A DNA stretch of 64,000 nucleotides, taken from the NCBI GenBank assembly GCA_951406725.2, contig OX597824.1, positions 20,894,001-20,958,000 of the forward strand, in the 5' to 3' direction. The stretch comes from Octopus vulgaris (lineage: Eukaryota). The translations under genes were made by a program, and so were the position numbers. Shown here piece after piece: positions 4,354-64,000 of the stretch (its first letter is position 1; every line of letters starts with the position of its first letter). The notes under the pieces are model-generated. The model did no database searches. It was not told the origin of the DNA and saw only the letters and a list, made by a program, of their open reading frames with translations.

Positions 4354-4361
4354 ACACGTCA
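4354..4361 (-). promoter_or_regulatory. UPRE/CRE-like bZIP site (TGACGTGT on - strand)
   Basis: ACACGTCA 12 nt upstream of the ERSE; one mismatch from UPRE TGACGTG(G/A). Confidence 0.5.
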
Positions 4362-4373
4362 CCGGTAGAGCGT

Positions 4374-4392
4374 CGTGGCGCAATCTGATTGG
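4374..4392 (-). promoter_or_regulatory. ER stress response element (ERSE), CCAAT-N9-CCACG on the - strand, upstream of CRELD
   Basis: + strand reads CGTGG-cgcaatctg-ATTGG, an exact ERSE consensus with a 9-nt spacer, about 370 nt upstream of the CRELD ATG in a locally CpG-richer patch. Confidence 0.8.
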
Positions 4393-4764: not shown

Positions 4765-4911
4765 ATGTATTTTTGGAACAGTCTATCGAGCAAATATTTA
4801 GCTATTAATTTCGCCTTGCTTTTGGTTTCTGTGTATGCTTCCACCAAAGAGGAGGATCCGATGATAAAAAAATGTGAAGCCTGTCGTAATATCGAAGAGC
4901 GGTATCGAGAG
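4765..4911 (+). CDS. CRELD: CRELD exon 1: signal peptide and CXXC motif (MYFWNSLSSKYLAINFALLLVSVYASTKEEDPMIKKCEACRNIEERYRE)
   Basis: ATG, hydrophobic signal-like stretch, CEAC matching the CRELD N-terminal CXXC; donor GAG|GTAAGT, phase 0. Confidence 0.9.
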
Positions 4912-8626: not shown

Positions 8627-8709
8627 GGTTTAAAAAGAACTGCAAAAGGTAACTATGGAGGTGGTAACACCAACTGGGAAGAAAATAAGCTTGGAAGTTA
8701 TGCTCTAAG
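8627..8709 (+). CDS. CRELD: CRELD exon 2 (GLKRTAKGNYGGGNTNWEENKLGSYALS)
   Basis: Family signature TAKxNxGGGNTxWEE; tcacag| acceptor, |GTAAGG donor; phase 0 to 2. Confidence 0.95.
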
Positions 8710-14421: not shown

Positions 14422-14476
14422 TGAAACGCGTATGACAGAAATATTAGAATATTTATACAAAATAGAAGATAAAACA
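14422..14476 (+). CDS. CRELD: CRELD exon 3 (ETRMTEILEYLYKIEDKT)
   Basis: Matches the SExRLxEILE motif; ttttcag| and |GTAAGT; phase 2 to 0. Confidence 0.9.
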
Positions 14477-16974: not shown

Positions 16975-17089
16975 GCTCACAGCTTATTGGAACAGTTTGA
17001 AGATAGGATTGAAAATTTCTGGTTTAAGCATTTTGTGAAAAAGACCCGTGTAGATTTCTTTCAATATTTCTGTATAACAAATGCTAAAG
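16975..17089 (+). CDS. CRELD: CRELD exon 4 (AHSLLEQFEDRIENFWFKHFVKKTRVDFFQYFCITNAK)
   Basis: WE-domain-like sequence; ttccag| and |GTATGA; phase 0 to 1. Confidence 0.9.
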
Positions 17090-19325: not shown

Positions 19326-19414
19326 TTTGTTGTCCAAAGAACACATATGGACCTACTTGTCAGCCTTGTCATGGAGGAAAAGAGAGACCATGCAAAAAGA
19401 GGGGCAAATGCATT
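19326..19414 (+). CDS. CRELD: CRELD exon 5 (VCCPKNTYGPTCQPCHGGKERPCKKRGKCI)
   Basis: VCCPxxTYGPxCxxCxGG motif; tttcag| and |GTATGA; phase 1 to 0. Confidence 0.95.
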
Positions 19415-20499: not shown

Positions 20500-20626
20500 G
20501 GTGAGGGTACCCGAGGTGGCAGTGGGAAGTGTAATTGTACAGATGGTTACGTTGGAGAATTATGTGATGAGTGCGATGTTGGTTTTTACTTAGGATACAA
20601 AAATGAGACACACACAGTGTGCCACT
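20500..20626 (+). CDS. CRELD: CRELD exon 6, EGF-like (GEGTRGGSGKCNCTDGYVGELCDECDVGFYLGYKNETHTVCH)
   Basis: GxGxRxGxGxCxCxxGYxGxLC motif; ttccag| and |GTAAGT; phase 0 to 1. Confidence 0.95.
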
Positions 20627-21720: not shown

Positions 21721-21822
21721 TATGTCACAAAGCTTGCAAGACATCTTGCACAGACAACACACCTTTTACCTGTGATGAATGTGGTCAGGGCTGGAAGTAT
21801 TCAGATGAATATGGGTGTGATG
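21721..21822 (+). CDS. CRELD: CRELD exon 7, furin-like repeat (LCHKACKTSCTDNTPFTCDECGQGWKYSDEYGCD)
   Basis: FU cysteine spacing; long T tract then tctag|, donor |GTAAGT; phase 1 to 1. Confidence 0.92.
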
Positions 21823-22873: not shown

Positions 22874-22954
22874 ATATTAACGAATGTAGTTTAGGTAACC
22901 CATGCAATGGTAATTTCCGGTGTAAAAATACAGTTGGTTGGTACGAATGTCATC
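22874..22954 (+). CDS. CRELD: CRELD exon 8, calcium-binding EGF (DINECSLGNPCNGNFRCKNTVGWYECH)
   Basis: DINEC...CxNTxGxYxC consensus; ttctag| and |GTAAGT; phase 1 to 1. Confidence 0.93.
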
Positions 22955-25200: not shown

Positions 25201-25296
25201 GGTGTGATCTTTCTTGTGATGGCTGTACTGGAAATGGTCCAGAAAAATGCATTCGATGTGCTGATGGCTATCGTCCAGTGGACGGTAAATGTTCTG
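25201..25296 (+). CDS. CRELD: CRELD exon 9, furin-like repeat (RCDLSCDGCTGNGPEKCIRCADGYRPVDGKCS)
   Basis: CDxSCxGCTGxGPxxCxxCxxGY motif; ttcag| and |GTGAGT; phase 1 to 1. Confidence 0.93.
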
Positions 25297-26534: not shown

Positions 26535-26675
26535 ACATTGATGAATGTGCTGAGAATACTGACGACTGTGACACAGAAGTAAGTACCTGTGAAAACCTAG
26601 AAGGAAAATATACATGCAAATGCAATGAAGGATACGTCCAAGACAAAAACAAAGATTGTATAAAGAAACTTAAAG
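26535..26675 (+). CDS. CRELD: CRELD exon 10, calcium-binding EGF (DIDECAENTDDCDTEVSTCENLEGKYTCKCNEGYVQDKNKDCIKKLK)
   Basis: DIDEC...CxNxxGxYxCxCxxGY; ttgtag| and G|GTAAGT; ends in phase 1. Confidence 0.93.
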
Positions 26676-27208
26676 GTAAGTTGATGTCATAAGAATTTTA
26701 TTAACTTTCAAAAGAACATAAACAGATTCCTTTTTTTGGAATGTCTCAAAGCATTTCACATAAAGCTATAAATAACAGTATGTAAATATCAGGCTGAAAA
26801 ACCCTTTGGGAGAGAAACAGTTGAAAGCTGCCCATACGACATGAACCCACGTCTCCAGTAGACATAGGCGTTTTACTATCGCCTGTTCTGGACTTTTCTT
26901 ATCGAGAAGGGTTTTTCACCCCGATTGTTATATGCTGTTATATACAGTTTTATGTGCGTCTTTCGGGATATTCAAAGAAAAAAAAAAAAGAATTTTGAAG
27001 GTAAGTTAATTTGTCATATGATGTGTTGATCAGCTTTTAACCTTTTGTTTCCTGTTGAGTTTGTCTGACCTTTTCAGTATTTTGTGTTAGGAAAGGTAGA
27101 AACCAGCCACAGAACCCGTGTTTAAGGCTGACAGTAAAGCATGGCACAATCCTCTGGTTTGGTCAGCTCCTGTCAAACCATTCCATGGAAGACAGAGGTT
27201 AAATGATA

Positions 27209-27441
27209 TATTTCTTTACTACCCACAAGGGGCTAAACATAGAGGGGACAAACAAGGACAGACAAATGGATTAAGTCGATTACATCGACCCCAGTGCGTA
27301 ACTGGTACTTAATTTATTGACTCCGAAAGGATGAAATGCAAAGTCGACCTCGGCGGAATTTGAACTCAGAACGTAACGGCAGACGAAATACGGCTACGCA
27401 TTTCGCCCGGTGTGCTAACGTTTCTGCCAGCTCACCGCCTT
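27209..27441 (-). mobile_element. SINE family A copy
   Basis: Near-identical to the 18523 copy. Confidence 0.8.
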
Positions 27442-28369
27442 AACTGATAATGGTGATGACAATGTTGACACCAAATAGGGGAAATTGGTTTGGTTTGGTA
27501 GCTTCCCACACTGTCAGAGTTACATCAGCAAGCTGTTGCAGTTTGGTTTTAGATTTGTTGTCTAAAGGAATGTTGCTTAATGGGACACAGATACTATACA
27601 ACATACATCACGATAGAACTGGTAAAGTAAACAGTGAATGGAAATGGAAGAGGGGTAGCCACAAGAATTTGTTGGCAAAAATGATCTGCATCAGTATAAA
27701 CTTTATTGGTCGAAATATAACAGAAAGAGGTGTTCCTAGAGCTTTTGTCAGAAAAAACCCTTTTTGGAGTGTCCTTTTAGTCTCTACTGCACCTCATGAC
27801 ACACCAGCATACACCTTTTCAAATCTGATTAATTGAACTGCTTCGGCTGTGGATTTTGTTTGAGGTTTTGAAGTACATATTTATTTCTTTATTGCCAACT
27901 GGGGGCTAAACATAGAGGGGACAGACATATTAAGATTGTTTTAGTTTAAGAGCTACACTTTTCCTTAGGAATAAACTGGAAAAAGCTTGTCAAAAATAAT
28001 TTGTTTTCAATATGGATTGCATTATTAGCATCTTTTTTTTATTTATTCGATATCGAATCTAGATTTGATCTTAGAATGAATGAGGGGTCCTCATAAGTGA
28101 GCTGGTTACACTTGACACACTAAATATCAGGTTGGAATGTAGAGGTTTGGTCCAGTTTGTTGACAAAGGATTTAGGCTTAGAATGTAGAATTTGGACAGT
28201 AAGTAAAATTCTGGGATTTAAGTTTGGAATGTAGGGGCTTGGGACCTAAAGTATCAGAATTCAGTTTGAGAGGGTTGGATTTGAGGTAAGAGAAATTGAC
28301 AAACAATATTTTTGTTTCTAATAGATAGAACTAAAAGGGTTTTTTTTCTGTTTGTTTTTGTTTTTTCAG

Positions 28370-28569
28370 ATATTTCCTTAAAAAAGAAGAAATCCAAAAA
28401 GTCTGAAGAGGGTAATGATAAAAGGGGTCTGCTGGTTTATTTTTTCATTCTTACGGGGATCGGAACGATGGGTCGGTTGATGCATGGTTATCCCCCCGCG
28501 GTTGCTATTATTCTGCTTTGGCTTGGGGGATACACCTTTTGGTTTGGGTCAGAAAACGATTCTCTTTGA
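28370..28569 (+). CDS. CRELD: CRELD alternative last exon A: Lys-rich linker plus two predicted TM helices (DISLKKKKSKKSEEGNDKRGLLVYFFILTGIGTMGRLMHGYPPAVAIILLWLGGYTFWFGSENDSL*); 411-aa membrane isoform
   Basis: Strong polypyrimidine tract and ttcag|, phase 1, in frame with exon 10; two hydrophobic segments with a short loop as in CRELD1. Confidence 0.88.
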
Positions 28570-29902
28570 TTCCGTATGTTTCACAGTGAGTGCTTAGTGT
28601 AAAAGTGTGTGTGTCTGCGTGCACAAAACCGAAAGAAATTGTAATTATTTAAAAGAACCTTCTCTGTTCCAGTTCTTTCATAGCAAATCTCTAACGAGCT
28701 TTTTATGGATAGAGCAAACGTGCAATGAATAATTGACCGCAGGAGAAAGGGTTTCTCTCCTGGAAACTGTCTCATTTATTCTTGTTCCATCGATGAAAAC
28801 CGTTTACAAGCTACCACTTGCACTGTATATATTTACTACATTCTTTCTCTGTAGCATTACCAGGGAAGGGTAAAAGCCCTAAAGGCGTTTGGGGTCCCTT
28901 CGTGATGAAGACTACAAATCAAGTTAATACGAACTGAGTCTAACTCTGTACAGGCTGCACCAACTAATGACTATATCAAAGGCAGCAAATGTTCATACTC
29001 AACTTTTTTAATATCTCGGGGGGAAAAGTTTCCCCCTGTTTTATTTCATTTCCTATTAATCATATTCTTTTGCACTCATTTTTAAAAAATGTAGTCGAAT
29101 GAGACAATGACTCCTAAGTAATTGATCGATGAAGAAATGTCATTGATCTCTGTGTAATGTCTTACAATATGTAAAAAAAAAAAATCTAATTAATTCTGTC
29201 ACACCTTTATTGGCTCCAGCCAAAAGGTAAGCTCCAGCACCAAAATATTCCAAATTACACCTTCGATTCTTACACATGATAATTGAAAGAATTCTATCAT
29301 TATATATGCTAGAGCTGCTGCCGGCATTTTTATTCATTACTGAGTGTTTTAATTAACTCAGTATGATCTGACTAATTAAAATGTTAATCTCTCACCGAAA
29401 TACAAATATTTGGAGAATGATGTTTACCACAAAAGCTAAATGAAAGTTATTACTGTCCAGTTTTAAGACACACGTTTTTTTTTTTGTGATTTGTCTTATG
29501 TAATATGATTTAAATCTGAATTATACAGATTTTAATTATTATTTTAATTGTATACTTGGTTCTTGTTAAGATTAAGTTATAGTGAGGGTTAACAGGAACA
29601 TATTTTTTTGTAAGTCAACTGACAACTATAATACTGAATCAATGAAATTACCAAAAATCATGAATGCAAACTGCAAAGAATTTTATTTTTCCAAAGTATA
29701 ACACTCTCTTTGAACTGTTTCATACACACGCAAAGGAGACGCACTGAATTTTGAAAATGACTTTTACATCATTTTCATAAAAAATTTTGATTCTTTTTTT
29801 ACTCATATTTTTTTTTAACTACCTGGTATAATTTGATACTAACAGTATTTGATTTACTTATACTAAACCCAATCTACTAAAGATGTAATTAATTAAAAAT
29901 CA

Positions 29903-30329
29903 TTAACCCATTAATGCACACAATTTAATTTTCATTAAATGAGTAGTACCAATGAAAAAATCACAAACGGATGATTATAAAATAGTTTGGTAATTAATGA
30001 AAAGTTACTAATTATATTGAACAGTATTAACCCTTTCGTTACCAACCTGGCTGAAACTGCCTCTGGCTCTCTGAGTACAAATGTCTTGTTTTCATAAGTT
30101 TTGAATTAAAATCTTCCACCAAACCTTAGTCACAATTTACGTTCCTAACACTAGCTGAATGATAACCAAGTTATATTACTAAATTATTTGTTATATTTAA
30201 AATAATTGAAAGAAATACAGAGTATCTCAGCAGAAATACAGTAACGAAAGGGTTAAAAATGGAACTAAATGTTTTGTAACATATTTTCTGTCTTGTTTTT
30301 TTTGTGAATACTATGCATTAATAGGTTAA
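29903..30329. mobile_element. TTAA MITE copy 3 (30027-30256) nested in another TTAA-CC-ended element, inside the putative CRELD 3' UTR
   Basis: Outer ends TTAACCCATTAATGCA ... TGCATTAATAGGTTAA. Confidence 0.65.
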
Positions 30330-30532
30330 TATAATAAGATTTATTTACATTGGTGTTCAGGCTTCTTGTTACTGTTTTTGAAGCATCTGAGATTTTTTTG
30401 TTTTTGATCTTTGTTGTGATCCAGTATGTTTATATTTTGTATGATATTATTGTGTTCTAAGTCTGAGGTTGCTATCTTAACAAACTGTTTTAAGGTCCAG
30501 CTCTCATTTTCTGAGATATCAAATATTTTTGA

Positions 30533-30538
30533 AATAAA
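30533..30538 (+). terminator. Candidate poly(A) signal of the CRELD membrane isoform
   Basis: AATAAA followed about 30 nt later by a GT/T-rich tract, ending about 2 kb of repeat-poor UTR-like sequence. Confidence 0.4.
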
Positions 30539-31983
30539 TCTTCATATTTGATTGAGATAAAGCAGAATTGTATGTTTTTGTTATTTTATTTTCTGCGAGA
30601 TTATCTCTACATTTTTGACTCGTTATTGGGTCAGGAATAGTATTTGATTTTTATCTGTTAAAATAAAAAAAACAGAACTGAGTTAGTGTGGGATATATTT
30701 ATCCTTCTCTAGTCTAGTAAAACACTTAAGATGTTGTGGATCTATAGGAAAATAATTAGCAGAGTTTATAGGATGAGATAGAAGTATTGTTTTGGAAGTT
30801 GATTGGATATTAATTCAATCCAACTAGTTTTTTCTTTTCTTATTTATGACTCGATATTTTTAAAAAAATTAAACATCTTTGATTACTTTGCATCATAGAT
30901 TGTTTGAGAAAATAATTTCACTGCTATACTTCATCTTGTTAATAAGCTGCAAAATAAATGTAGAATTTATTTTAGGTGGTTTGATTCGTTAACAGGTTAT
31001 GATGTACTTATGTTATGGTTAAATTGGATAGATTCAGTTTCTTTTTTTAATTTTTTATGATCTAGAAGTATTTCTATTACCACCAAATATAACCAAATAA
31101 CAAAGGCAATTCAACTGATTTAGGTATTTATAGCTTGTTTTTATGTCAAGAAGTGTTAAGGAGTTAGCAACAATCTGAACATGTTGTCACTAATTGTCGA
31201 ACGAAGATGAATTGCTGAACAACTTTCAACGTATTTAGAGTTGAGTTTGTGTTTTTGTGTCCTTGTTTATCTTGAAGCTGGTACCAAGTCTGATGCTTTT
31301 GTTGGTTTGAGAGAAGTTATTTCTGTGGACTGTGATCTTTGAGTGTTATTAATCTGCAAAATGTCACTAACAACACATAGATAGATTCTTCTTTTTAAAA
31401 ATCCTAATCTGCACTGCCACATTAAAAGTAGATCTATTTCAATAGCATTCTCTTACAGCACTATCAAGCTATGGTGAAGGTGTCTGGCTTAATGGTTAGG
31501 GCATTCGACTCACAATCACAAGGCCGTGAATTCGATTCCCTACAGTGTGTTGTGTCCTTGAGCAAGACACTTTATTTCACATTGCTCCAGTCCTCTCAGC
31601 TGGCAAAAATGAATGGTACCTGTATTTCAAAAAGGGTCAGCCTTGTCACATTCTGTGTCATGCTGAATCTCCTTGAGAATTACATTAACCCTTTACTGTT
31701 CGCATTATTCTACCAAAATTAAGGTTTTTTCATCCACATTGCCTTGAACTAATCAGGCATTATCTTGTAGCTTTGAGATTTTGATGAGGTAGCTGTTAAT
31801 TTTTTAAACCTTATTGTAGGGTTGGTGTGAGAGACCAGATCTGGCCATTTTGAACATAAAACAAGCAGAATACTTATGGCCGGTTTAAATGCTAAACGGT
31901 TAAGGGTATGTATGGAGAGTGATGATCTTGTGGATCGACTGATTGTCTTGATGATTTCCCTTCGCCCCTATCTGAAAAAAAAA

Positions 31984-32193
31984 AAGGCGGTAGGCTGGCA
32001 GAAACGTTAGCATGCTGGGCGAAATGCTTAGCAGTATTTTGTCTGCCGTTATGTTCTGAGTTCAAATTCTGCCGAGGTCGACTTTGCCTTTCATCCTTTC
32101 GGGGTCGATTAAATAAGTACCAGTTATGCACTGGGGTTGATATAATCAACTTAATCTGTTTGTCCTCTCTGTGGGTAGTCATGAAATAGGTAT
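31984..32193 (+). mobile_element. SINE family A copy
   Basis: Same head and body; ends GAAATAGGTAT. Confidence 0.78.
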
Positions 32194-32724
32194 GTGTGTC
32201 TGAGCAGTTTCATGAGCAGGTTGTTCCATTGATCGAATCAACTGGAACCTTCATCATCGTAGCTGATGGAGTACCAGTTAAGAGGTTATGGTTACCTGAG
32301 ATACATCTGATATGCAAGAAATGTTTGACCTATCTGGAAGCCTCTAGGTGACCAACCTCATTGTCAAGATACTCTTCTGAGTACCATTTGTCAATTACTC
32401 AATCCAGTTGTAGACTCTCCTCTGAGCAGGGTTTACCATTTTAGTTAAATCCATTGTAAGGTTCTCGCTGTCTTTAAAGTCTCAAATACTCTGCTCAAAT
32501 CTTCGTATATCTTCATCTGTTGACTTATTTCTTATTTAGTGGTTTGGCAGGATATGACTTTTCTCTGGTTTAGCCATGTACCCTCTAGCTGACATTGTGT
32601 GGCCCATTGATGTTCTCTCTATTTTCAAGAAATACTATCCTTTCTCAGCTGAAGGCAACAGAAATGAGTTCAGTGTATTTCATTTGTTACTGGCTAATCT
32701 GTTCCTCATTTTGAGCAAAAGCTT

Positions 32725-32755
<31 letters not shown>

Positions 32756-33015
32756 AGTTATTGTATACAGTGCTCAGGTGCACCACAACTTGTCAACAGT
32801 GCATATAAAGCATGACGCAGTAATGTACAAATGTCTGGGAAGTGAACAGTGTATGAGTCAGATACATGCTTGCGTGTGTACGGAGGGGAGAAAATCAGGT
32901 GTAGTGTTGGCGAATCTCAGGAAGCATGGAAGTTTTGAAGGATGCAGTGCTCCGACAACTAACAACTGATGCCGGCAGTCTGTTCCATGTTTCAGCAACT
33001 CTTAGCGTGAACTCA
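32725..33015 (-). mobile_element. CR1/L2-type LINE 3' end with (TTA)n tail
   Basis: Minus strand translates RVAETWNRLPASVVSCRSTASFKTSM...*; tail fragments also at ~7338-7385 and ~43140-43585. Confidence 0.68.
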
Positions 33016-33811
33016 TGTTTCTTACAAATTCAAATCTTAGCTAATCTCTGTATTTTCTCAGCCAGTATGCTACTTAGCTGTGGTGGTTAGAAGTTAGGGT
33101 TTACTTCTAGCAAAACTGTCTTCCTATGTTAACACATTGTGTTTACTCAAAGCATTGGTGTTTGAACATTCTCTTTGAAGTAGGGAGCAGTGTAACTTAC
33201 TGTTCTTCTTTGTAGAGCAGGAGTTGGTTGTGGCAATTACAAGGCTACTACACTGTACTTACTCTTAGTAATTTCTTTATTATTTTAGCAACAGTGAAGT
33301 CTATTTTGCTGAAAAGGTCAGACACGTCCAGAGTTGCCTCCCATATTTACTGAAACGTTTATAGTATTATTAACCCTTTGAGCCCAAAACACCGGTTTAC
33401 AGGTGGATGGCTTATTTTTCTCTATACTGTAGCATCGGTGGAGTGCCAGGTCTGTGGTCAAATAGGGTTCAGGAGGTCAGGGGTCAAAGGGTTAATTATT
33501 CATTGAGCTTATGTCCTGGCCTCACCAAGTTAGTATTTGCAATTAGATTTTTGACCTCTATATTAAACATATAAATTTGATACTGAGAAAAGGGTGTTTA
33601 GAGGGAGGAATAACAAGGCACATTAACAGAAGTGGTACTCAGTCAGCAGTGTTCATAGAACACAGTCACTGTAGGTGTTTTTCCTTTATTTGGAAAGTAT
33701 GTTGTCATAAATTTTCAATGTCTTTTTTAAAAACCCAAATTAAATTCCTTTATAACTAACATTTCTGACACCATCCCTATAACACTTTCAATTGCAAAGA
33801 ATAATAAACAC

Positions 33812-33882
<71 letters not shown>

Positions 33883-34308
33883 TACATACACGCACACACA
33901 CAAAAATATCATATATATATATATATATTATTGATTAAGAAAACAGAGAGATCTAATGGTTTCAAACAAATTTATTAATTAATCAAAATATTCACCTACA
34001 ATGTTTTGTAGTTGAATACTTTGATTTTCCATACATGGTATTTAAAATGCAAAATTATATATTTATGTTTTGTAATTTTAATTTTGTTTGTGAAATAAAA
34101 CAGTTGTAACTGAATATGTTGATTAATTAATAAATTAATTTGTATCCATTAGATCTCTCTGTTTTCTAACTCAATAATAATGTTTGATGTTTTACGATAT
34201 TTTATATAATATATTCATTGAAGAAATATCTCTTCAAAATATAATATATTAAACCAGTGTATCTTGGATAAAATATCCCTATGAGAGGTTTAAATATCCT
34301 CATTGCGA

Positions 34309-34365
<57 letters not shown>

Positions 34366-34477
34366 ATTTAAAAATAGGATAAAATCTTTATAAGAAATTA
34401 TCAAGTTGTTAGTGTGAAAAACCTCATAAGGGAAAAATTTATTAATTTTTCCCTTTAAATATATTTATTTATATTAA

Positions 34478-34627
34478 GGGCATTACTATACATAAATGCC
34501 TCACGATAGGAGGGACTCTTAAAGTCAAAACTACCGTAATAAATACATTGTACAATGTGTTTGTTATAGTAGTTTTGACTTTAAGAGTCCCTCCTAGCAT
34601 GAGGCATTTATGTATAGTAATGCCCTG
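34478..34627. repeat. Near-perfect ~150-bp palindrome
   Basis: AGGGCATTACTATACATAAATGCCTCA...TGAGGCATTTATGTATAGTAATGCCCT, centred on ACATTGTACAATGT. Confidence 0.9.
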
Positions 34628-36061
34628 AATATAGATAAGTATATATGTGTGTGTGTGTGTGTATATATATATGTTGGCATTCGTGGGTTGAATTGAAAAT
34701 GATTGTGAATTTTTAAAAAAAGTCATTTTCTAACCATTAGTTTGTCTGTTTCGATGTTTAACAAACTAAAAACAAACAAAAAATCCCTGCTGGTCTATCT
34801 ATTTTTAGTTTCATTCTTTAAAACCCAATATTTATTCATTTCAAATGTCTTGTTATTTGTTTACATTGTTTATATCTGTTTTAAATTTTTTTTTTTTTTT
34901 TTTACATAAAATAGTTAACAAAAGCAGTTTTCATTTATTTGAAAGTGAAAGTACAGAAAATTGTTTGCCAAGGTTTCCTGCTAGTTTTGTCCTTGTTTTG
35001 ATCACTGTAGATAATCACACATGGTCAAGTTTATTAAAAAAATCCTCTAAAGGTCACAGTCTGTTTCCATTTTCTGGGAACTGTATGAATTTTCCTAAAG
35101 TTAAAAAGTTGTTCTTGTATATTTTAGAATACATGTTGAATTTCTAAAAAAAATGCTACTAAAAAATTTTGCTGGATTTGATGGAGTGAGCAGAAAAAAT
35201 AGATTTGATCTTTACTAATGCCAAATCTACTATTAATTATGAAGCAACAAAGAAACCTCTATGTGGTTGCTTGATCTGCTAGATACAATAGCAGCAGCTG
35301 TATTTCATTCAAATTGTCCTCTACTGTTTTGTTTAAAAGGAAAAGAACTAATCAAAATAGGGAAATTACACTCTGCTGTCTTTAAGAAAGAAAAGAAATC
35401 CTTGGCTAATGTAGCCCAAGGTACTCTTAAAACTGATAAGATGGTCATGGCTGGATTGTTTTTCATCTTAAATCTGTTGGATTAGTTGACCTAGGGCTAA
35501 ATGACCCCCCCCCACTACTATCAACTGAACATTTTAGATAGGTTTATTCATACAAAGACATCAAACATTTTCTGTTCATTCTTCAACCATTGTTTTTTCA
35601 GTTTCTTTCAAAATCTCACCACGAGTGGTACTCAACTCTAGTCCTCACAAGTTGCTCCAAATTCTGTGCTTCATTATTACTGAGGATCTCTTCTGGTGAA
35701 AGCACATCTTTTGCAGAGCTAGGACCACATCCCAAAGACAAACCGTGAAGAAATTATTGTCCCCAATGGCTTCTGATGCCTCACAAGGCTCAAGTGGGCC
35801 CACAGTGGTATATTGCACCATTATTTGAGATTGAACTGCTACTCTGCTCACTGACATCCTGTACTACATCCAGAGAAGAGCTGCTCGGTTGACTTGCCTG
35901 CTACCATTTTGGCGTCTGACCCATAGATGTGCTTTCTATTTACTCTGTCTTTTGTGATGCTACTATGATGGTCTTTGCTCTTCCTCTCAGTTCCCATGAG
36001 CTTTGTGTCAGATGTTTGCAACTCTTGGCCAGATGCTTCTACCCTCCTCAGAGTTCATTTT

Positions 36062-36467
36062 TATTTCTTTACTACCCACAAGGGGCTAAACACAGAGGGG
36101 ACAAACAAGGACAGACAAACGGATTAAGTCGATTACATCGACCCCAGTGTGTAACTGGTACTTATTTAATCGACCCCGAAAGGATGAAAGGCAAAGTCGA
36201 CCTCGGCGGAATCTGAACTCAGAACGTAGCTGCAGATGAAATACCTATTTCTTTACTACCCACAAGGGGCTAAACACAGAGAGGACAAACAAGGACAGAC
36301 AAACGGATTAAGTCGATTACATCGACCCCAGTGCGTAACTGGTACTTATTTAATCGACCCCGAAAGGATGAAAGGCAAAGTCAACCGCGGCGGAATCTGA
36401 ACTCAGAACGTAGCTGCAGATGAAATACCGCTAAGCATTTCACCCGGCGTGCTAAAGATTCTGCCAG
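36062..36467 (-). mobile_element. SINE family A, head plus 2 body units
   Basis: Two near-identical ~184-bp bodies joined at the same junction. Confidence 0.82.
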
Positions 36468-37879
36468 TGTTCATTCTTGCTGCACCACTTCTCTTTCTTG
36501 AGCCAGATCTGTCTCAAAGTTCTTGAAATATCTGTGTTGATAATCTCATTAATGATGTGTTCCATTTACTTACTTGTCTAGGTGGTGACCTTTAATTAAG
36601 AGTCTGCTTGTCTGTGATCTCATCTGACTTGTCAAGTCATTTCATGTGTCATTACATTTATCAGGAGATAAATGGAAAGAGCATGAAAAAATGTCCTTTT
36701 ATGATTCTTCAAAATCAAGGAAATTTTGTCACAACAATATATATTTGTTATTTTTGCTGTTTTTAGCAAATGAAGTTTTTCAATTCTGCAAAACTTATTC
36801 CAGAATTTGTCTTGAAACACTTCAGATTCATCAACCCCAACAGCAAGAACCAAAAATTAATGAATTCCTTTACTGAAAACACATTCAAGAACCTTCATCA
36901 AAACATCTGTGGAACTTAGGCTTTTGTATTTATGTTGAGAGATGAGAGGAACACAAGCTTCACCAACAGAACCAGTGGGTTGATTTGAAGTTCTTGATAT
37001 TTCGTGGATGGAAAATGGCACCATACAAGTTTTTAGAACCCAAACTGCTAAATAGGGTTCTGAATTATTTGGATTACAATATTGTTTACCTGAACAAAAT
37101 GAAGCTTTAGCAGAGGAATTTTTCGTATCAAAGAGTATAAACAATTTCCTTGTACTTATCTTTTCAACTTCACCTTAAGTGAACATCTACATTGTCACCT
37201 GGCTGCCCTCGAATCACACCTTATTGTCTCACAAAAGAAGACATAATGGAATGATATTATTCTAGTATACCTAGAATAATATAAGGAGTGGTTGGAGATC
37301 ATGCGGTCGTTAGCCTCAAATTGCCAGGCCTGGTCAGCGTTTGTGAGAGATGCAGCATTGAGGATGAATGAAGCCAGCTCAACCCACCCCGGGTGAATGC
37401 TGTCTCAAGACAAGAAGAAGGAGGTATACTATGTCCGAAAAGAAAACAAAATGATCCTGGAATGCTTTTGACCAGAGCTGACCTGAGGCTAAACAGCAAC
37501 AAACTTATTTAGTTTTGGAGGCTTCATTGATCGATTGATGATTCATTTACCGTTTTATTGAAGTTGGGGTATTTTGGTGAATTTGTCAATAAACCATGCA
37601 AATACTCATCTGTTAAATAAAGGCTGTTTATCACAAACAGGCTGTTTGTCATAAATGACTCTGCTGGATAATCTATATACCAGAAAAGACTCATTTTATG
37701 AAATTTGGCTGAAACTGTACTCTAGTTAAGTACAAAAAGGCTTCCTTCAGAGAAAAATGTATTATTTTATAGTGAAAAATACATTGAGAGCAATGATAAC
37801 AAGGAAAATTAATTCCTTGTTTTCAGTCTTTCCAAAATAGTTATTCGGAAGTTTTAGTGACCATCTCATCTTTCATCAA

Positions 37880-38295
37880 CAGATTCTACTATATGGCTTG
37901 AGAAACCTGGATGTTATCAAAGAAGCTTGAGAGGCAGTTGGATGGAACTTACACTCGCCTCCTTATGAGAGCTCGATATCTCTCGTGGAAGCATCATCCA
38001 ACCAAAGTACAAATATATGGGAAATTACCACCTGTACCATCTCTTGTGAAAGGTAGAAGAGTCCAGTTTGCTGGACATTGTTGTAGAGCTGAAAACGACG
38101 TAATTTCTACTCTTCTCCTCTGGAAGCCATCTGCTCGTGATACCAGAGGGCACACACTCTCCTACCCTGATGTAATCTCCAGGGATACAGGCATCCAGCA
38201 ACAGGACCTCCGTAATGCCATGATGGACCGTGAAGTCTGGCGTTACATAGTAAATTCCATTGTCTCAACCACGGTCGAACAATGATGATGATGAC
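37880..38295 (+). mobile_element. Non-LTR retrotransposon 3' fragment (RTE/RTEX-like)
   Basis: ORF 37911-38285 'LDGTYTRLLMRA...VQFAGHCCR...LLLWKP...AMMDREVWR' followed by a (GAT)n tail. Confidence 0.75.
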
Positions 38296-39427
38296 AGATT
38301 CAGCCTCGAAACCTCAGGCTCGTCTTCTAACAGCAAATTTATTCCACTTGTGAAGTCTTTTATTTAAAAAAAGAATTTTTTTTACTTCACCAATACAGAC
38401 CATTGCTTGCATCTTACTGATTCACTCAGTCCTCTGGTAAGGATTGGATATGTTCCTGATCTTAGGAGCTGGCTGTAAATGATTAACCAATCCAATATTG
38501 ACCGAATCAAATATACAGCCTTTAGTAATTTCTTGTGTGGCATGGGTGTGTGGATATATGGAATTTGGTTTGTAGCCATGTGGTTTTGGGTTCCATCCCT
38601 CAGTGTGGTACCTCAGGTTGTGTCTTTCTACCACTGCCTCTGTGTTAACCAATACCCTGTGGCTGAAATTCTGTAAATGGAAACTCTACAAAACCTATCT
38701 TTGTGAGTGTGTTCACCTTGATATTGCATTATGGTACATTTGTCTTCTGCTTGTGTAATCAATATGTTCCATAGCTCTGGTTTTGTGTGAAGACTTGTAG
38801 AATATAAATAATCTTACTTAAAAACAGTGGAGGGCATTCAGCTTCAACAAGTCTCATCCAACTCATGCTAACATGGGCATAAAAACAATGATGATGGATA
38901 AAGTATGATTGGCAACATTAGTCTTTTTTGTTTTTGTGATTGATCACAGCAGGAACCATGTAGCATTGAGGAAGTGGTTATGGTGAGTGGCAGAATGGGG
39001 GAAGCACTCCGTCGGTTACGACGACGAGGGTTCCGGTTGATCCGAATCAACGGAACAGCCTGTTTGTGAAATTAACGTGTAAGTGGCTGAGCACTCCACA
39101 GACACGTGTACCCTTAACGTAGTTCTCAGGGATATTCAGCATGACACAGAGAGTGACAAGGCTGGCCCTTTTGAAATACAGGTACAACAGAAACAGGAAG
39201 TAAGAGTGAGAGAAAGTTGTGGTGAAAGAGTACAGCAGGGATCACCACCATCCCCTGCTGGAGCTTCGTGGAGCTTTTAGGTGTTTTCGCTCAATAAACA
39301 CTTACAACGCCCAGTCTGGGAATCGAAACCGCGAGTCTGCTCCCTAACCACTGGGCCATTGCGCCTCCACAAAGTGGCAGAATAATTGGGTATTAATAAA
39401 AGAATATTGTATAACTTTCTAATTTAC

Positions 39428-39820
39428 ATTATTTACATTTGACGGATATCTGTCCTCATCTTGTTTGTTGTTAACACAACATTTCAGCTGATATACCCTC
39501 CAGCCTTCATCAGGTCTTAGGGAAATTTTGAACCTGGGGTCTCATTTCTAAGGTATTTTTTCTATGTTATTATTATTATTCAGATCACTGCCTGGAATCG
39601 AACTCAGAATCTTGGGGTTAGTAGCCTGCGCTCTTAACCACTATGCCATGGATATATGGTGACCTGAATAATAATAATAATATATAAAAATACCTTAGGA
39701 ATGAGAACCTAGGTTCAAAATTTCCCCAAGATACCTGATGAAGGCTGGAGGGTATATCAGCTGAAACGTTGTGTTAACAACAAACAAGATGAGGACAAAT
39801 ATCCGTCAAATGTAAATAAT
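39428..39820. mobile_element. Fold-back element: tRNA-derived head between ~160-bp inverted arms, each carrying a hammerhead motif
   Basis: Arms 39428-39588 and 39659-39820; A box at 39638-39648 and B box at 39594-39603 on the - strand. Confidence 0.75.
39730..39775 (+). ncRNA. Minimal type I hammerhead ribozyme motif (Penelope-type)
   Basis: GATAC-CTGATGA-A-GGCTG(gagggtatat)CAGCT-GAAACGTT-GTGTT: stem I GAUAC/GUGUU, stem II, palindromic stem III. Confidence 0.6.
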
Positions 39821-40118
39821 TCCCCATCTCTTAAATATAGGACTGAACTTTCTCATTAATACTCAGGGTGGGAGCAAGTGATATGTTGTAGCAAACTGCT
39901 GAGGTGAATTGTTCGTTATTTTGTGATGAATTCTTCTTAGCAATGGAAACTGTTTATTTTATTGTATTTTAGTTCAAATAACTTTCACAGTAATCTTATT
40001 AATGTTAGAGTCAAGCATCCTTTTTGTTGTTTTCCTTTTTCTGTAACTGAATCTGATGCTGACAAATAACTATTAACCCCCACTCTCCAAAAACAAAATC
40101 TTTTTAATATGAAAATAT

Positions 40119-40533
40119 TTTTTTTCTTTTCTAGGCACAAGGCCTGAAATTTTTGGGGAGGGGACCAGTTGATTAGATCATCCCCAGTATGCAACTGGTA
40201 CTTAATTTATCGACCCTGAAAGGATGAAAGGCAAAGTCGACCTTGGCGGAATTTGAACTCAGAACGTAAAGACAGACGAAATACCGCTAAGCATTTTGCC
40301 CGTCATGCTAACGTTTCTGCCAACTCACTGCCTTTTTAATATGAAAATATTAATCAAGGTGGCAAGATGGCAGAATCGTTTGCAGGTAAACGCCAGATAA
40401 AATGCTGAGTTGGAAATTTTTCTGAGGTTGACTTTGCCTTTCATCCTTTCTGGGCTGATAAAATAAGTACCAGTTACGTACTGGGGTCGATGTAATTTAC
40501 TTATTCCCTTTCCCAAAATTTATGGCTTTGTGC
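40119..40533. mobile_element. Head-to-head inverted pair of SINE family A variants
   Basis: Minus copy ~40130-40332 with 18-bp TSD TTTTTAATATGAAAATAT (40101, 40333); plus copy ~40356-40533. Confidence 0.75.
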
Positions 40534-41363
40534 CATGATTATTTGCAATGTGATTTAAAAAAAAAAAAAACTGTTTTCAATTGTGTTTTTGCACTAACTT
40601 TAAAATGATTCCATTCTGTTGTAATGTTTCACCACTAATCAAGGTAAAAAAAAAAAGTCAAATATTAGATGTTATTTATATGAAAAAAATAATAAATTAA
40701 AAAACAAAGGACATTTATTGTGGTTAATTAAAAACTGTGATATTTCTAATGAGTAAACAAAAAAAAAAACAAAACAAAACTCATTTCTGTTTTATTTCTG
40801 TTTATAACTAAACTGTGAGCAATCCATTGCTGTTGACCAGAATGACAGAATTTATTTAATTTGTATGATACCTGTTCTCCTCAAAAGGAAATTAGATTTG
40901 GGAAGGTTAAAAAAATGAATTTAATATGAAACGGACCCAGAGTTCTGAAAAACTAGAAAAATAGAGAATGTAATGTTATTAATGACTCCCTAAGGTAAAA
41001 ATGCTGTTTTAGTAAATATATATTGAAATGTAACAGGATGTGTACACCATTCTATGGGCAATGGTGCTTCATTTTTTACATCAATTATATAGCAAATTCA
41101 GTATCGGATATACTAATATTTGTCCTCCCCATTTTTAATAATGCTTGTCAAATCAAATAAAAGCAATGCAATTAAATTAATGGGCTCTAAGCTTTGGTAC
41201 TAAACTTGTCAGAGGTTTGAGAAATTTGAAATTTACACCTAGCATGTTAAATCAACACCATTTGGGCTTCAGGGCTGGTTTTTAAAAAATTTATTCCATT
41301 TCTAAATTGTATTGCTTTGTTTCCAAACTAAGTCTTATAATTGTTTTTCTTCTTTTCTTTTAG

Positions 41364-41425
41364 CAAGCAAACGAGTCACCAATGCCACAGTCCCAGAAGA
41401 TCCCCTTCCCAAAGTCGAACTATGA
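41364..41425 (+). CDS. CRELD: CRELD alternative last exon B: ASKRVTNATVPEDPLPKVEL*; 365-aa soluble ER-retained isoform
   Basis: Long polypyrimidine tract and tttag|, phase 1, in frame with exon 10; KDEL-like KVEL, then TGA TAG, AATAAA at 41431 and 41495. Confidence 0.82.
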
Positions 41426-43169
41426 TAGAGAATAAATCAACTTGGCTGGCAAAACAAAAACAAACAAAAAAAGAGAGAAAAAAATTAAATTTTCAATAAA
41501 TAATTTTTTATACTAAAATAAAACAAAGTAAAAAAAAAAATCAACAACTAAAACTCCTTTTCTGAAAGATTAAAACCAAAGAATGTTCCTAGCTTTTGAT
41601 CAACAACCACAATCTTATTTGTGGGACACATTTTGTTTTTTATACTTTGATCTTTGAAATCTTCAATTATTCAATCCCTAGTGAGTTATTCATGAAAGCC
41701 TCTGTTGGTCATCTGTCTTTCATCTCTATGCATAGGCCTGAGTAAAGGCCTGTTATTATTATGTTTGGAAGACTGGCATTTGCCCATATGTGCAAGTTTA
41801 TCCTCTCCAAGGCACTGATGTTGTCCAAGGGAAAGGCCACAGTTCAGGCCAGTGCCATTGCATCTGTTGCTGTTAAAATACAAAAGGGCAGAACAAATAA
41901 CTACAAGGCATCTTGTTTGTCACTCCAATATTTCCGCCAATCCACCACCTTTGATTGGTACTTTTTTGTCGACCCTGAAATGATAAGTTGGCTTTGACGG
42001 AGGTTTGAACTCAAACCACATACATTTGGGTGAAACAACTGCCATACGACATGTCTGTCAACGTCAACAACTTTCAGTTTGCCACCTTTCTGCTCATAGA
42101 ATTCGAAGATATTGGGTTCAAATTTTAACACAAGGCCTGCAAGTTCGGGAGAGGGGGGGGCTGGTCAATTACATCGACCCCCAGTACTCAACTGGGACTT
42201 ATTTTACCGACCCTGAGAAAGATATAAAGCAAAGTTGACCTCAGCTTAATTTGAACTCAGAACGTAATGACAACGCTGAGCATTATTGCGCTTCGTGCTA
42301 ACGATTCTGCCAGCTCGCCGCATAAGTATTAACATCCCAAGTAAATATCTGATAAGTATTCATCGGATTAAATGAGATTAACCTTTAAAAGATATCAACT
42401 CCAACCAAAACTGACAACGCTTTCACACCAAAAAGGGGAGATTACTCTTCATACACCAGAGAGCGCCATTTTTTTTCCTTGTGATTACGAAGTTAGCTTC
42501 ACAACCATCTATGTCCAGGTTCAATCCCACTGCATGGCACCCTGAGCAAATGTCTTTTATTACAGTCTCGGGTCATCATCATGTGTGTAAGTGAAATTGG
42601 TATATGGAACCCGAAAAGAAGCTTTTATATTCTTTCATTTTACGTCCGTCTTTTAGCATGATAACATGGATTAGGTTTATTTTACAGCCGGGCACCCTTT
42701 TGGTAACCCTTCCCTGTTTTTCGAATAAGGGATCTCTTTGAAGACCTAAAAGCAAACGGACGGTTTGTAGACAGAAGTCACAACAACATCGCTCGTTGTG
42801 AGTAACTTTCACAGGGGCGCAAATGTAAACAAACACTTTTTTTTTTTAAAGTTTTGTCGACCAAGTTCACTCACCAGCTTTGGTTGACCCAGGGCTGTAT
42901 GAGACACTTGCCCAAAGTGCCATGCAGCGGCACTGAATTCAAAACAACACCCACAATGAGTTCAAATTCAGCTGAGGTCAACATTGGCTTTCATCCGGTT
43001 GGTGTCGTTAAAATAAGTAGTATTCGACCGACTTGCCCCCTCCCTCAAAATCGCTAGCCTAATATCATAATCAGAACAAAAATATTACCCAATGAGGAGA
43101 GAGATGTTCTGGTTTGCATTTTCCTGTAAAACTTTCGATATAATGATAATAATGAAATTATTGTACACA

Positions 43170-61014: not shown

Positions 61015-61882
61015 TCAATCAGAGAAATCAGACAAGGACTCGGTTTCAACACTGCGATAATAACCCTCAATCGACTGATCTGTGTTGGATCTGTTCAAAA
61101 CTCCATAGTCAGTTGATCCTTTTCGGCTGTCTATATATGGAGAGGATTGGTGCATAGGGCTCCTGTTATTGTTCAGGTTCTTATTTGGAGTGTTTATATT
61201 TCTGTTGACACCGATTCCTTTGTTACCTCCAGCAGGTTTCCCAAGTATCATGTCTCGAATTTCTTGGTCAAAGTTATCAGGTATTCCTCTATACTGGTTC
61301 TTTCTGGTTGGGATCGGCGATGGAGAGCTAGGTCTCCTCTCTTCTATGTGAATTGTAGGTGCATTTTGATTCATCATGGGTCTCATCATTGGGTTAGGTG
61401 GACCCTGGGGTTGTGGTGTCATGCTACCACGTCGATTTCCTGGACTTACTTTTGGCTCATTTATTACTGGTGGTCGCATGCCAGGTGGACCCATACCGGG
61501 TGGGCCCATTCCGGGTGGACCCATACCAGGTGGCCCCATTCCAGGTGGGCCCATGCCAGGTGGGCCCATACCAGGTGGGCCCATACCAGGTGGGCCCATG
61601 CCAGGTGGACCCATGCCAGGTGGTCTCATGCCAGCTGGACCCATGCCAGGTGGACCCATGCCAGGTGGACCCATACCAGGTGGACCCATACCAGGTGGTC
61701 TCATGCCAGCTGGACCCATACCTGGTGGTCTCATGCCACGGGGACTTGAAACATGGGAACGTGGATCCATTCCAAATTTAGCTGGTCCAGCACCCCGTCC
61801 TTGAGGCCCCATACCTGCGGGTGACTGAGTAGTTGGGTTGATTTTTATGCCAGTGTTCAAAGGTCCTTTCTGCCTGGGTGAG
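61015..61882 (-). CDS. PACSIN: Alternative PACSIN exon: 288 codons, Pro/Gly/Met-rich, 18 GM(G/R)P(P/A) repeats, ends in TGA
   Basis: Pyrimidine-rich tract ending ttactag|, phase 2; long open frame; repeat units differ mostly at synonymous third positions in this frame. Confidence 0.72.
61468..61737 (-). repeat. Coding 15-bp tandem repeat, 18 units (GMGPP/GMRPP/GMGPA)
   Basis: 270 nt of GGNATG(GGN/MGA)CCA(CCN/GCT) units. Confidence 0.95.
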
Positions 61883-62409
61883 CTAGTAAGGTAAATAGAG
61901 GAAGGAACAAAGGACTTAGAAAACATCATTGCTACGATTGGATATAAAAATTTCAATTTCATGTTAACAATTGCTATTTTAATCAAATAACCTACACAAT
62001 CCTGTAAATTATTAAGTGATCCAGATAAGAATCATTTAATAATCTATCGGCTGTAACAAACAACCTGAAGAAAGTCTGTTAGTGTTGTGTAAGCTCAAAG
62101 ATCAGCTCCTTGTAAAATAAGAATGGATTAAATTAAAGAATTTTCTTCTTCTTTGTACTAAGCTAGAAAATCATACCCCCCCCCCCCACTTCAGAAGAAC
62201 TAAAACTGAAGAGCTGAGAAGAAAAATTCTAATAATTTAATTTATTATTATTTTTTCTTTTAAGAGCCCGTCTAATCTATAATGGCAAAAGTCTGCATAG
62301 GAAGAGGTATGTTGTTGACAGGAACTTTCATTTCATGCCAAGATGCAGTAAATAAAATGTTTTTTTAGTAATTTAAATTATAGACACTGAACTGCAAACC
62401 TATCATTAC

Positions 62410-62569
62410 TTTTTCTTTTGAGATGCATCTTTCACCAAATGTTTAGCATCACTATGTATATCTTCGTCGTCAGATTCCTCTCCAAAAGGATTGAGACTTT
62501 CATCGTAGCTCTCTTGCCTATAAAAGGTATAGGAGCTATAAGACTGTTCAAATTCAATGAAGTCGAGAG
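62410..62569 (-). CDS. PACSIN: PACSIN/syndapin linker exon with NPF motif (LDFIEFEQSYSSYTFYRQESYDESLNPFGEESDDEDIHSDAKHLVKDASQKK)
   Basis: ttttag| acceptor, AA|GTAATG donor in phase 2, compatible with both the 61882 and 55078 acceptors; NPF with acidic flank. The acceptor could instead be near 62518. Confidence 0.7.
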
Positions 62570-64000
62570 CTAAAAGTATTGTGTTTTTAATTTTTGGCGG
62601 GAAGGGAATGTGGAGCCAAAGTAAAATTGAACAAACACACACGCATACACGTACACACGACACGCACACACACCATTCCATGCATTTTAAGATAAATTAT
62701 TAGATTTTTTTAAAAAAACAAGAATTTTTTTTTTTTTAAAGTGGATGTTAAGTTTCTTTGAGAGGATTATTTTCTGATAGGTATGGGCAATATAGATGAG
62801 AGAATTAATAAAACAAAAAACAACAAACGTGAAAAAAGAAAAAGGCAAGAAAATAGCGCCTTGTGTGTTTGAAAAAAAGCTCACCAAAATTTCAATTCGT
62901 TTACAGAATCAATAGTTATTAAACAAATAAATAGATATTAGATTGCTTTTGCAAGAAGAAACACACATAAACACACACAAGAAAATACAATAATAAAATT
63001 GGGAGAAAAAGAGAAATCAATAAACAATATCAAATACATGTGTTGTTTATCAAATTCATACAAATAAATAGAAACAATTTAGTATGATGTATTTGTTGGG
63101 ACCTGAAATATATTTTGTATGAGAGCTGAAAATAAAATGAAATTACTTGAAAAAAAAAAAAATAAAAAAACAGGCGAGAGAAACAAAGTCCAATCAGGAT
63201 GCTCAACTGATTAGACAAAATAACAATTTTCCCGATAGATTAAACCATTATTCTCATTTTGTTTTTTCCTTCCTAATACACAAAAATTAGTTGTAAATCA
63301 ACGTTTGATCTAAAAACATCTTTGCACTAAAGTTAACTCCCATCCTATACACATACATACAAAAGCAATTTTCTTTTTTTTTTGCTAGACTGCTCATTTA
63401 ATAGTGACTGCAAGAAAAAAAAAAAACCCCAAAAACTCATAAAATGAAGGGTTGGACAAAATCCTAGCTGTTCCCACTTAATGAAAACAATCTTATTGCT
63501 ACCGTAAATCTATATTAAACTAGATTAACCCATCTTGCAGATATTGACAAACTCATCATCTTCAATAACTCTCTTCTAAACCAATAAAATATCAGAGTAT
63601 CAACTGTTAATGAGTCATGAGTTTAAATGTACAACAAACATTTCACCAGAAGCACTGAGTAAATTATTAATTCTTATATTAGTTTATGTAACTTCAGAAT
63701 GGATATCAGCTTCCTCTGGGAAAGTTGCCCATAAAAATTAGTCATAGACTCGTTTGTCTCTCATCTACTTCACACCAGAGAAACTGATAATTGCTCTTAG
63801 TTCAACCCCGCCTCCTCCACCTTTTTTTTTTTTAGTTCATGCATGTAAAATTATAAGTTATAACATGCTCAGAGACCATTGTCTGTTTATACTGTTTTTT
63901 TTTGTTATTTTTTTTCCCTAAGTAGGACAACTTATGAGTACAGCTGAAACTTATTTCTTACCTTTATATTGGAATGGTAGGGAGGGATAAAATTTTGATT

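Follow-up and report, generated by a model that had tools for sequence, protein, structure and literature searches.

We analysed 64,000 nucleotides of the Octopus vulgaris genome (assembly GCA_951406725.2, contig OX597824.1, positions 20,894,001 to 20,958,000, forward strand; hereafter the window, numbered from its first letter), which hold a CRELD gene on the + strand. We consider it likely that splicing at the 3′ end of this gene joins a common protein to either a predicted two-helix membrane anchor or a tail ending in KVEL that probably serves retrieval to the endoplasmic reticulum (ER), and that this switch goes back to the cnidarian-bilaterian ancestor and was divided between two genes after a vertebrate duplication. 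The original prediction for this stretch, that one gene encodes both a CRELD1-like and a CRELD2-like architecture, is supported by the exon structure and the annotated isoforms. Its novelty was overstated, since a one-gene, two-isoform arrangement is published for worm and fly (PMC6245729, PMC12448699); the octopus gene is a further case of an already known switch, real and annotated. What this analysis adds is the route through a splice donor inside the membrane exon, a probable pre-bilaterian age and an ER stress element (ERSE) upstream of the gene.

The rebuilt gene starts with the ATG at 4765 and has 10 common exons, all bounded by GT-AG, the last of which ends at 26675 in phase 1, as had been predicted. 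The parts of the gene are as follows.

4765..4911, + strand: coding exon 1, with the predicted signal peptide and the first CxxC of the WE domain
8627..8709, + strand: exon 2, WE domain
14422..14476, + strand: exon 3, WE domain
16975..17089, + strand: exon 4, WE domain
19326..19414, + strand: exon 5, Cys-rich region
20500..20626, + strand: exon 6, Cys-rich region
21721..21822, + strand: exon 7
22874..22954, + strand: exon 8, EGF-like
25201..25296, + strand: exon 9
26535..26675, + strand: exon 10, calcium-binding EGF, with a phase-1 donor; the final exon common to all forms
28370..28411, + strand: first 42 nucleotides (nt) of the composite exon, a Lys-rich 14-residue linker present in the 411- and 379-amino-acid (aa) forms
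GT at 28412, + strand: internal phase-1 donor of the composite exon, after 28411, seen in read contigs, in RefSeq isoform X2 of two Octopus species and in the 379-aa protein of Argonauta
28412..28569, + strand: read-through part of the composite exon, two predicted membrane helices and the stop codon of the 411-aa form
28570..29300, + strand: likely 3′ untranslated region of the membrane form, on the basis of 20 listed runs, none recorded as RNA, in which 77-90% of the words sampled from 28370-29300 are present
41364..41425, + strand: distal last exon, 62 nt, 20 residues to KVEL, used in the 365- and 379-aa forms
41426..41436, + strand: second stop codon and first AATAAA (TGA TAG, hexamer at 41431)

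The two tails have the features that had been proposed for them. When exon 10 is joined to the acceptor at 28370 the frame stays open to a TGA at 28569, giving a 411-aa product with hydrophobic segments at residues about 365-383 and 388-406 (hydropathy). An AlphaFold2 model folds this tail into a helical hairpin (residues 362-382 and 387-407; predicted local distance difference test score about 56-78) preceded by a disordered linker at 345-364, so frame, hydropathy and model bear out the two predicted C-terminal membrane helices that are typical of CRELD1. When exon 10 is joined to 41364, the product is 365 aa long and ends in a 20-aa tail with an N-A-T sequon, KVEL and tandem stops (TGA TAG), followed by AATAAA, all as described. 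It is the one xxEL-ending combination among 585 acceptor-frame combinations in the window, and it has no hydrophobic tail, so that the KVEL form pairs an apparent ER retrieval motif with the absence of a membrane segment, as in CRELD2. KVEL falls outside the Prosite motif; human ERp27 ends in the same four residues, and every residue except Pro at the -3 position of the motif gave ER localisation in the assays described in PMC2140024. By analogy, KVEL is likely a workable ER motif and the soluble forms are probably retrieved to the ER. The KVEL end is conserved in Argonauta as well as in O. sinensis and O. bimaculoides; the sequon is kept in Argonauta and lost in O. bimaculoides (VTSAT). Additional AATAAA hexamers lie downstream at 41495 and 41517. 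In a contig of run X5 (depth 403) the first hexamer has lost one base, at 41434, and the contig runs on beyond 41456, so polyadenylation may rely on another signal; the predicted immediate AATAAA is present.

In the 2.8-Gb genome one match was found for exon 10 and one for the KVEL exon (lower bounds), and the exon 10 search found no second CRELD gene there, a count subject to the same bound. Both tails therefore come from a single locus. To see how they are joined, read contigs of four RNA-like runs were taken over 227 bases around the distal acceptor 41364. Two of the four runs gave spliced contigs, both with the junction 28411/41364: the contig in either run has a 29-base loose end at the acceptor that matches only 28382-28410, which places the donor at 28411 (AG|GTAATG-type, phase 1). 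The spliced contigs are 102 and 571 deep, compared with 4.6 and 7.1 for the unspliced ones (22- and 80-fold), and their junction yields a 379-aa KVEL form. Because the donor lies inside the membrane exon, that exon is composite, with read-through giving the anchor and donor use giving KVEL. The KVEL exon is therefore spliced in RNA-like contigs as expected, but the expected junction 26675/41364 was not seen in the contigs of the four runs, which drop rare variants, and 28411/41364 was found instead. The splice mechanism first proposed is incomplete, since the observed route uses a donor within the membrane exon. That the spliced contigs stem from a retrocopy was rejected, since the KVEL exon has one genomic match (a lower bound).

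Annotated proteins agree with this gene model. The 411-aa form is identical to O. vulgaris CAI9729809.1 (411/411) and the 365-aa form to CAI9729807.1 (365/365), and RefSeq isoforms X1, X2 and X3 have 411, 379 and 365 aa in both O. sinensis (XP_029642561/563/564) and O. bimaculoides (XP_014778611/618/626). The 62-nt exon, which had been thought easy to miss, is thus annotated in three Octopus species, and Argonauta has an annotated 379-aa KVEL form. The 379-aa form found in the RNA-like contigs is absent from the cluster's O. vulgaris records. One further O. vulgaris model (CAI9729808.1, 356 aa) uses a fourth last exon at about 31066-31100 and has neither an ER motif nor a membrane segment; its acceptor context is weak and none of the other listed Octopus records has an equivalent, so it is possibly noise.

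The common part identifies the family. Residues 7-25 form a hydrophobic stretch (mean hydropathy 1.46) that is a candidate signal peptide, the region that follows can be aligned to the WE part of named CRELDs and has a CxxC at 37-40, and PF07645 scores above its cut-off at residues 299-340, consistent with the EGF and calcium-binding EGF domains of the family. Similarity to CRELD1 of Amia is full-length (43% over 317 columns, E 1e-77). Pfam DUF3456 gives no match at E 0.01 in octopus CRELD, and likewise in Actinia. Fold matches of the octopus model are EGF arrays; no solved CRELD structure was found by sequence (one EGF-type match, E 1e-9) or by fold. Protein disulfide isomerase activity is reported for worm and human CRELD proteins (PMC6245729, PMC12448699). 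Cephalopod CRELDs and the annelid Dimorphilus have lost the two Cys that make up the WE domain's middle pair (window exons 3-4): neither is present in 21 of 177 motif-bearing rows, comprising 18 cephalopod or cephalopod-like rows and 3 of the Dimorphilus cluster. The paired loss suggests one disulfide between them.

To what extent is the arrangement shared? We surveyed 21 protein clusters, 17 invertebrate and four vertebrate. Among the matches listed, both tails occur on a common N-terminal part in 12 of the 17 invertebrate clusters and in none of the four vertebrate ones. The two-tail clusters are those of Octopus, one cephalopod-like cluster, Mytilus, Aplysia, Lingula, Watersipora, Dimorphilus, Ramazzottius, Lytechinus, Actinia, Acropora and Clytia. 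Named pairs from the same species are letter-identical before the branch in 12 of 13 cases; in the exception, the Watersipora pair tested, the two proteins are set apart by an internal segment. In vertebrates, 32 of 34 named CRELD2 rows have an ER-type end and none has a hydrophobic tail, and both Amia CRELD1 rows carry the membrane tail. The cnidarian pairs come from three genera in two classes, so that the switch, if it had a single origin, predates Bilateria; judged from these proteins it is likely older than Bilateria and derived from the cnidarian-bilaterian ancestor. The original suggestion that it is ancestral to bilaterians thus probably understates its age, given the matching pairs of Actinia, Acropora and Clytia. 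Sponges contributed one record (Sycon), with KDEL only. A 50%-representative search added 142 proteins, 77 of them with the WE motif and fewer than 700 aa; these 77 (32 ER-type, 26 membrane-type, 19 other) shed no more light on when the switch arose.

The known systems place the octopus gene in context. In C. elegans, crld-1 makes CRLD-1A as well as CRLD-1B through alternative last exons and, like the octopus gene, sets two membrane segments against KDEL on a common WE and EGF part; unlike it, the worm gene is described as having alternative exons 9a and 9b, and Drosophila probably does the same as the worm (PMC6245729). The octopus gene differs from crld-1 in its internal-donor route, third isoform, KVEL end and 13-kb intron. 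Fly Creld is one gene whose isoforms PA and PB are with and without membrane segments (PMC9307246, PMC12448699), an arrangement that PMC12448699 contrasts with the two vertebrate genes; the available text of these two papers names no lophotrochozoan, cnidarian or echinoderm in connection with the switch. Vertebrates use two genes where octopus uses one: CRELD1 with two membrane segments, and CRELD2 with an (R/H)EDL tail and a promoter ERSE (PMC10018036, PMC3091781). Our literature search, which left most subscription journals and supplements outside, found nothing on CRELD in octopus or on cnidarian CRELD splicing.

A quick tree of the common part (26 rows, with no cyclostome, tunicate or amphioxus that could be named) groups Amia CRELD1 with five CRELD2 proteins in one clade (Shimodaira-Hasegawa-like approximate likelihood ratio test 93), and support for the vertebrate CRELD1 and CRELD2 clade is 99/97 once six long rows are omitted. 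The approximately unbiased test rejects a grouping of CRELD2 with invertebrate deuterostomes (p-AU 0.015). Octopus CRELD falls outside the vertebrate clade and does not group with one paralog only, which on these alignments makes it a co-ortholog of CRELD1 and CRELD2. The tree agrees with a duplication in vertebrates after which the outputs were partitioned between the duplicates, in line with what had been proposed.

The branch points hint at the older state of the exon. A phase-1 donor (G|GT) that is read through necessarily encodes Gly, and the first membrane-specific residue is Gly in seven of the 12 two-tail clusters; in four it is Gly-Lys, which is what read-through of a GTAAG donor would encode. 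Clytia and Lytechinus are ambiguous in branch type, and Mytilus, Aplysia and Ramazzottius resemble separate exons. This pattern suggests that the composite exon, documented at the DNA level in octopus alone, is the old state.

Several points weigh against the preferred reading. Single-tail clusters make up five of the 17 invertebrate clusters among the matches listed: Ptychodera, Centruroides and one further cluster have the ER tail alone, and Macrostomum and one coral-like cluster have the membrane tail alone. Pairs outside octopus are mostly annotation models, known from proteins alone. The tree holds a single CRELD1 (Amia, of odd composition) and omits six long rows. On the invertebrate tail profile, the Amia CRELD1 tail scores 6.1 bits and its reverse 4.2, 2 and 6 of 500 shuffles reach the Amia score, and BLASTP leaves the tails unaligned. 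Branch points, read from proteins only, lie between 2 and 37 residues beyond the final Cys, a scatter which implies that splice sites moved or arose more than once. On the octopus side, runs X6 and X14 yielded no contig, which is not evidence either way, the RNA nature of all four runs is a guess, and the read contigs cover the surroundings of the distal acceptor, not the 26675/28370 junction or the membrane exon.

These points leave room for another history, in which the switch is real in octopus but anchors were gained repeatedly from a soluble xxEL ancestor by reading into the last intron, vertebrate CRELD1 being a new gain. The weak tail similarity, the scattered branch points and the ER tail alone in the Sycon record and in the Ptychodera and Centruroides clusters would all suit it. 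We nevertheless consider it unlikely, because a basic linker and two-helix hairpin stand at the same place in cnidarians, lophotrochozoans, sea urchin, tardigrade and beetle, mouse Creld1 rescues worm crld-1a mutants (PMC6245729), and many independent gains are less parsimonious. That octopus has one relevant form, the other being splicing noise or an annotation artefact, is very improbable: the contigs do not cover the membrane-form junction or show that of the 365-aa form, and a C. elegans b-specific mutant resembles wild type in a levamisole assay (PMC6245729), but three Octopus species have exactly the same membrane tail, one further cephalopod-like cluster has a close one, and contigs with the KVEL junction are many times deeper than the unspliced ones.

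Upstream of the gene lies a candidate stress-control element.

4374..4392, + strand: perfect ERSE (CGTGG-N9-ATTGG), about 370 nt upstream of the ATG

This is the sole exact copy in the window (shuffle mean 0.04), and shuffling the upstream kilobase yields an ERSE in 25 of 20000 cases; genome-wide there are 984 exact matches, compared with 1227 for the reversed control. Just upstream, at 4354-4361 on the - strand, lies TGACGTGT, a candidate sequence resembling the unfolded protein response element (UPRE). The mouse Creld2 promoter has the same ERSE motif in the same orientation (PMC10018036), so octopus CRELD shares a CRELD2-type promoter trait of putative function. A perfect ERSE in the same orientation also lies about 210 nt upstream of the ATG of octopus calreticulin (L003 4999-5017), and one with a single mismatch, again in the same orientation, lies about 140 nt before the likely first exon of a GRP94-like gene (L006 3364-3382). 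We presume these gene names from family matches and N-termini. No exact ERSE was found in four stretches by other chaperone-family matches, nor in two further ones beside the calreticulin and GRP94-like genes; the control stretches without a match included 20 kb by a second calreticulin-family gene, whose start was not located, and 10 kb by each of two cytosolic-type HSP90 matches, whose starts are presumed. The occurrence of the element in the CRELD and calreticulin promoters hints at a vertebrate-type stress element in molluscs, on which a literature search with subscription journals and supplements largely outside its reach found nothing. Mouse Creld1 is also induced by tunicamycin (PMC3987120), so that stress control is not cleanly assigned to CRELD2, a further point against a tidy division between the paralogs.

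The preferred reading, an old switch later divided between the vertebrate genes, would work in octopus as follows. Exon 10 would join 28370, and read-through of the donor at 28411 with use of a proximal end would give the anchored 411-aa form; use of the donor, with removal of the 13-kb intron, would give the 379-aa KVEL form; and exon 10 spliced straight to 41364 would give the annotated 365-aa form. All three forms have an identical luminal part with WE and EGF domains, so the switch would decide only the location of this ER folding helper. By extension from C. elegans CRLD-1A, the anchored form would stay at the ER membrane by multi-pass clients such as acetylcholine receptors; by extension from mammalian CRELD2, the KVEL forms would be unanchored within the lumen and could be released upon stress. 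The upstream putative ERSE would increase output during ER stress. More tentatively, and with rather less confidence, these elements may form one ancient unit: a pre-bilaterian contest between splicing and polyadenylation, with the anchor behind a phase-1 donor, a distal ER-retrieval exon and the whole gene under an ERSE, which vertebrates split into two genes, the ERSE going with CRELD2; on this view ER stress may in octopus also shift the choice of tail.

Other features of the genome were recorded alongside. On the - strand, 61015-62031 and 62406-62696 hold exon-like frames of a convergent neighbour gene with a long MGPPG pentapeptide repeat. Introns in the window (e.g. 36062-36429 and 27219-27440) contain many copies of an interspersed repeat of ~200 nt, one in tandem, which we take to be an octopus short interspersed element. 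In a search for the head-to-head CRELD2-ALG12 pair of vertebrates, none of 13 PF03901 matches lay on the window's contig. Two PF03901 glycosyltransferase matches elsewhere (G000 C27:20147753-20149351, 709 aa; C16:41641328-41642428, 680 aa) have long open frames and are apparently intron-poor, and on C25 a distance of 3 Mb separates the two cytosolic-type HSP90 copies.

Variants of CRELD1 cause neurodevelopmental and heart-septal disease, and CRELD2 serves as a marker of ER stress. For CRELD specialists the surprise is limited, as worm and fly already implied most of it. Invertebrate proteins labelled 'CRELD2' need caution, since they include CRELD1-like forms; all annotated Octopus isoforms carry that name, the membrane form included. 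The division of splice forms between gene duplicates is a general process (PMC4417111, whose main text does not mention CRELD), and CRELD would, if our reading is true, be an unusually old example of it. The difference between CRELD1 and CRELD2 would then go back to a single splicing decision that has persisted from the cnidarian-bilaterian ancestor onwards, and invertebrates with a single gene could serve as models for both.

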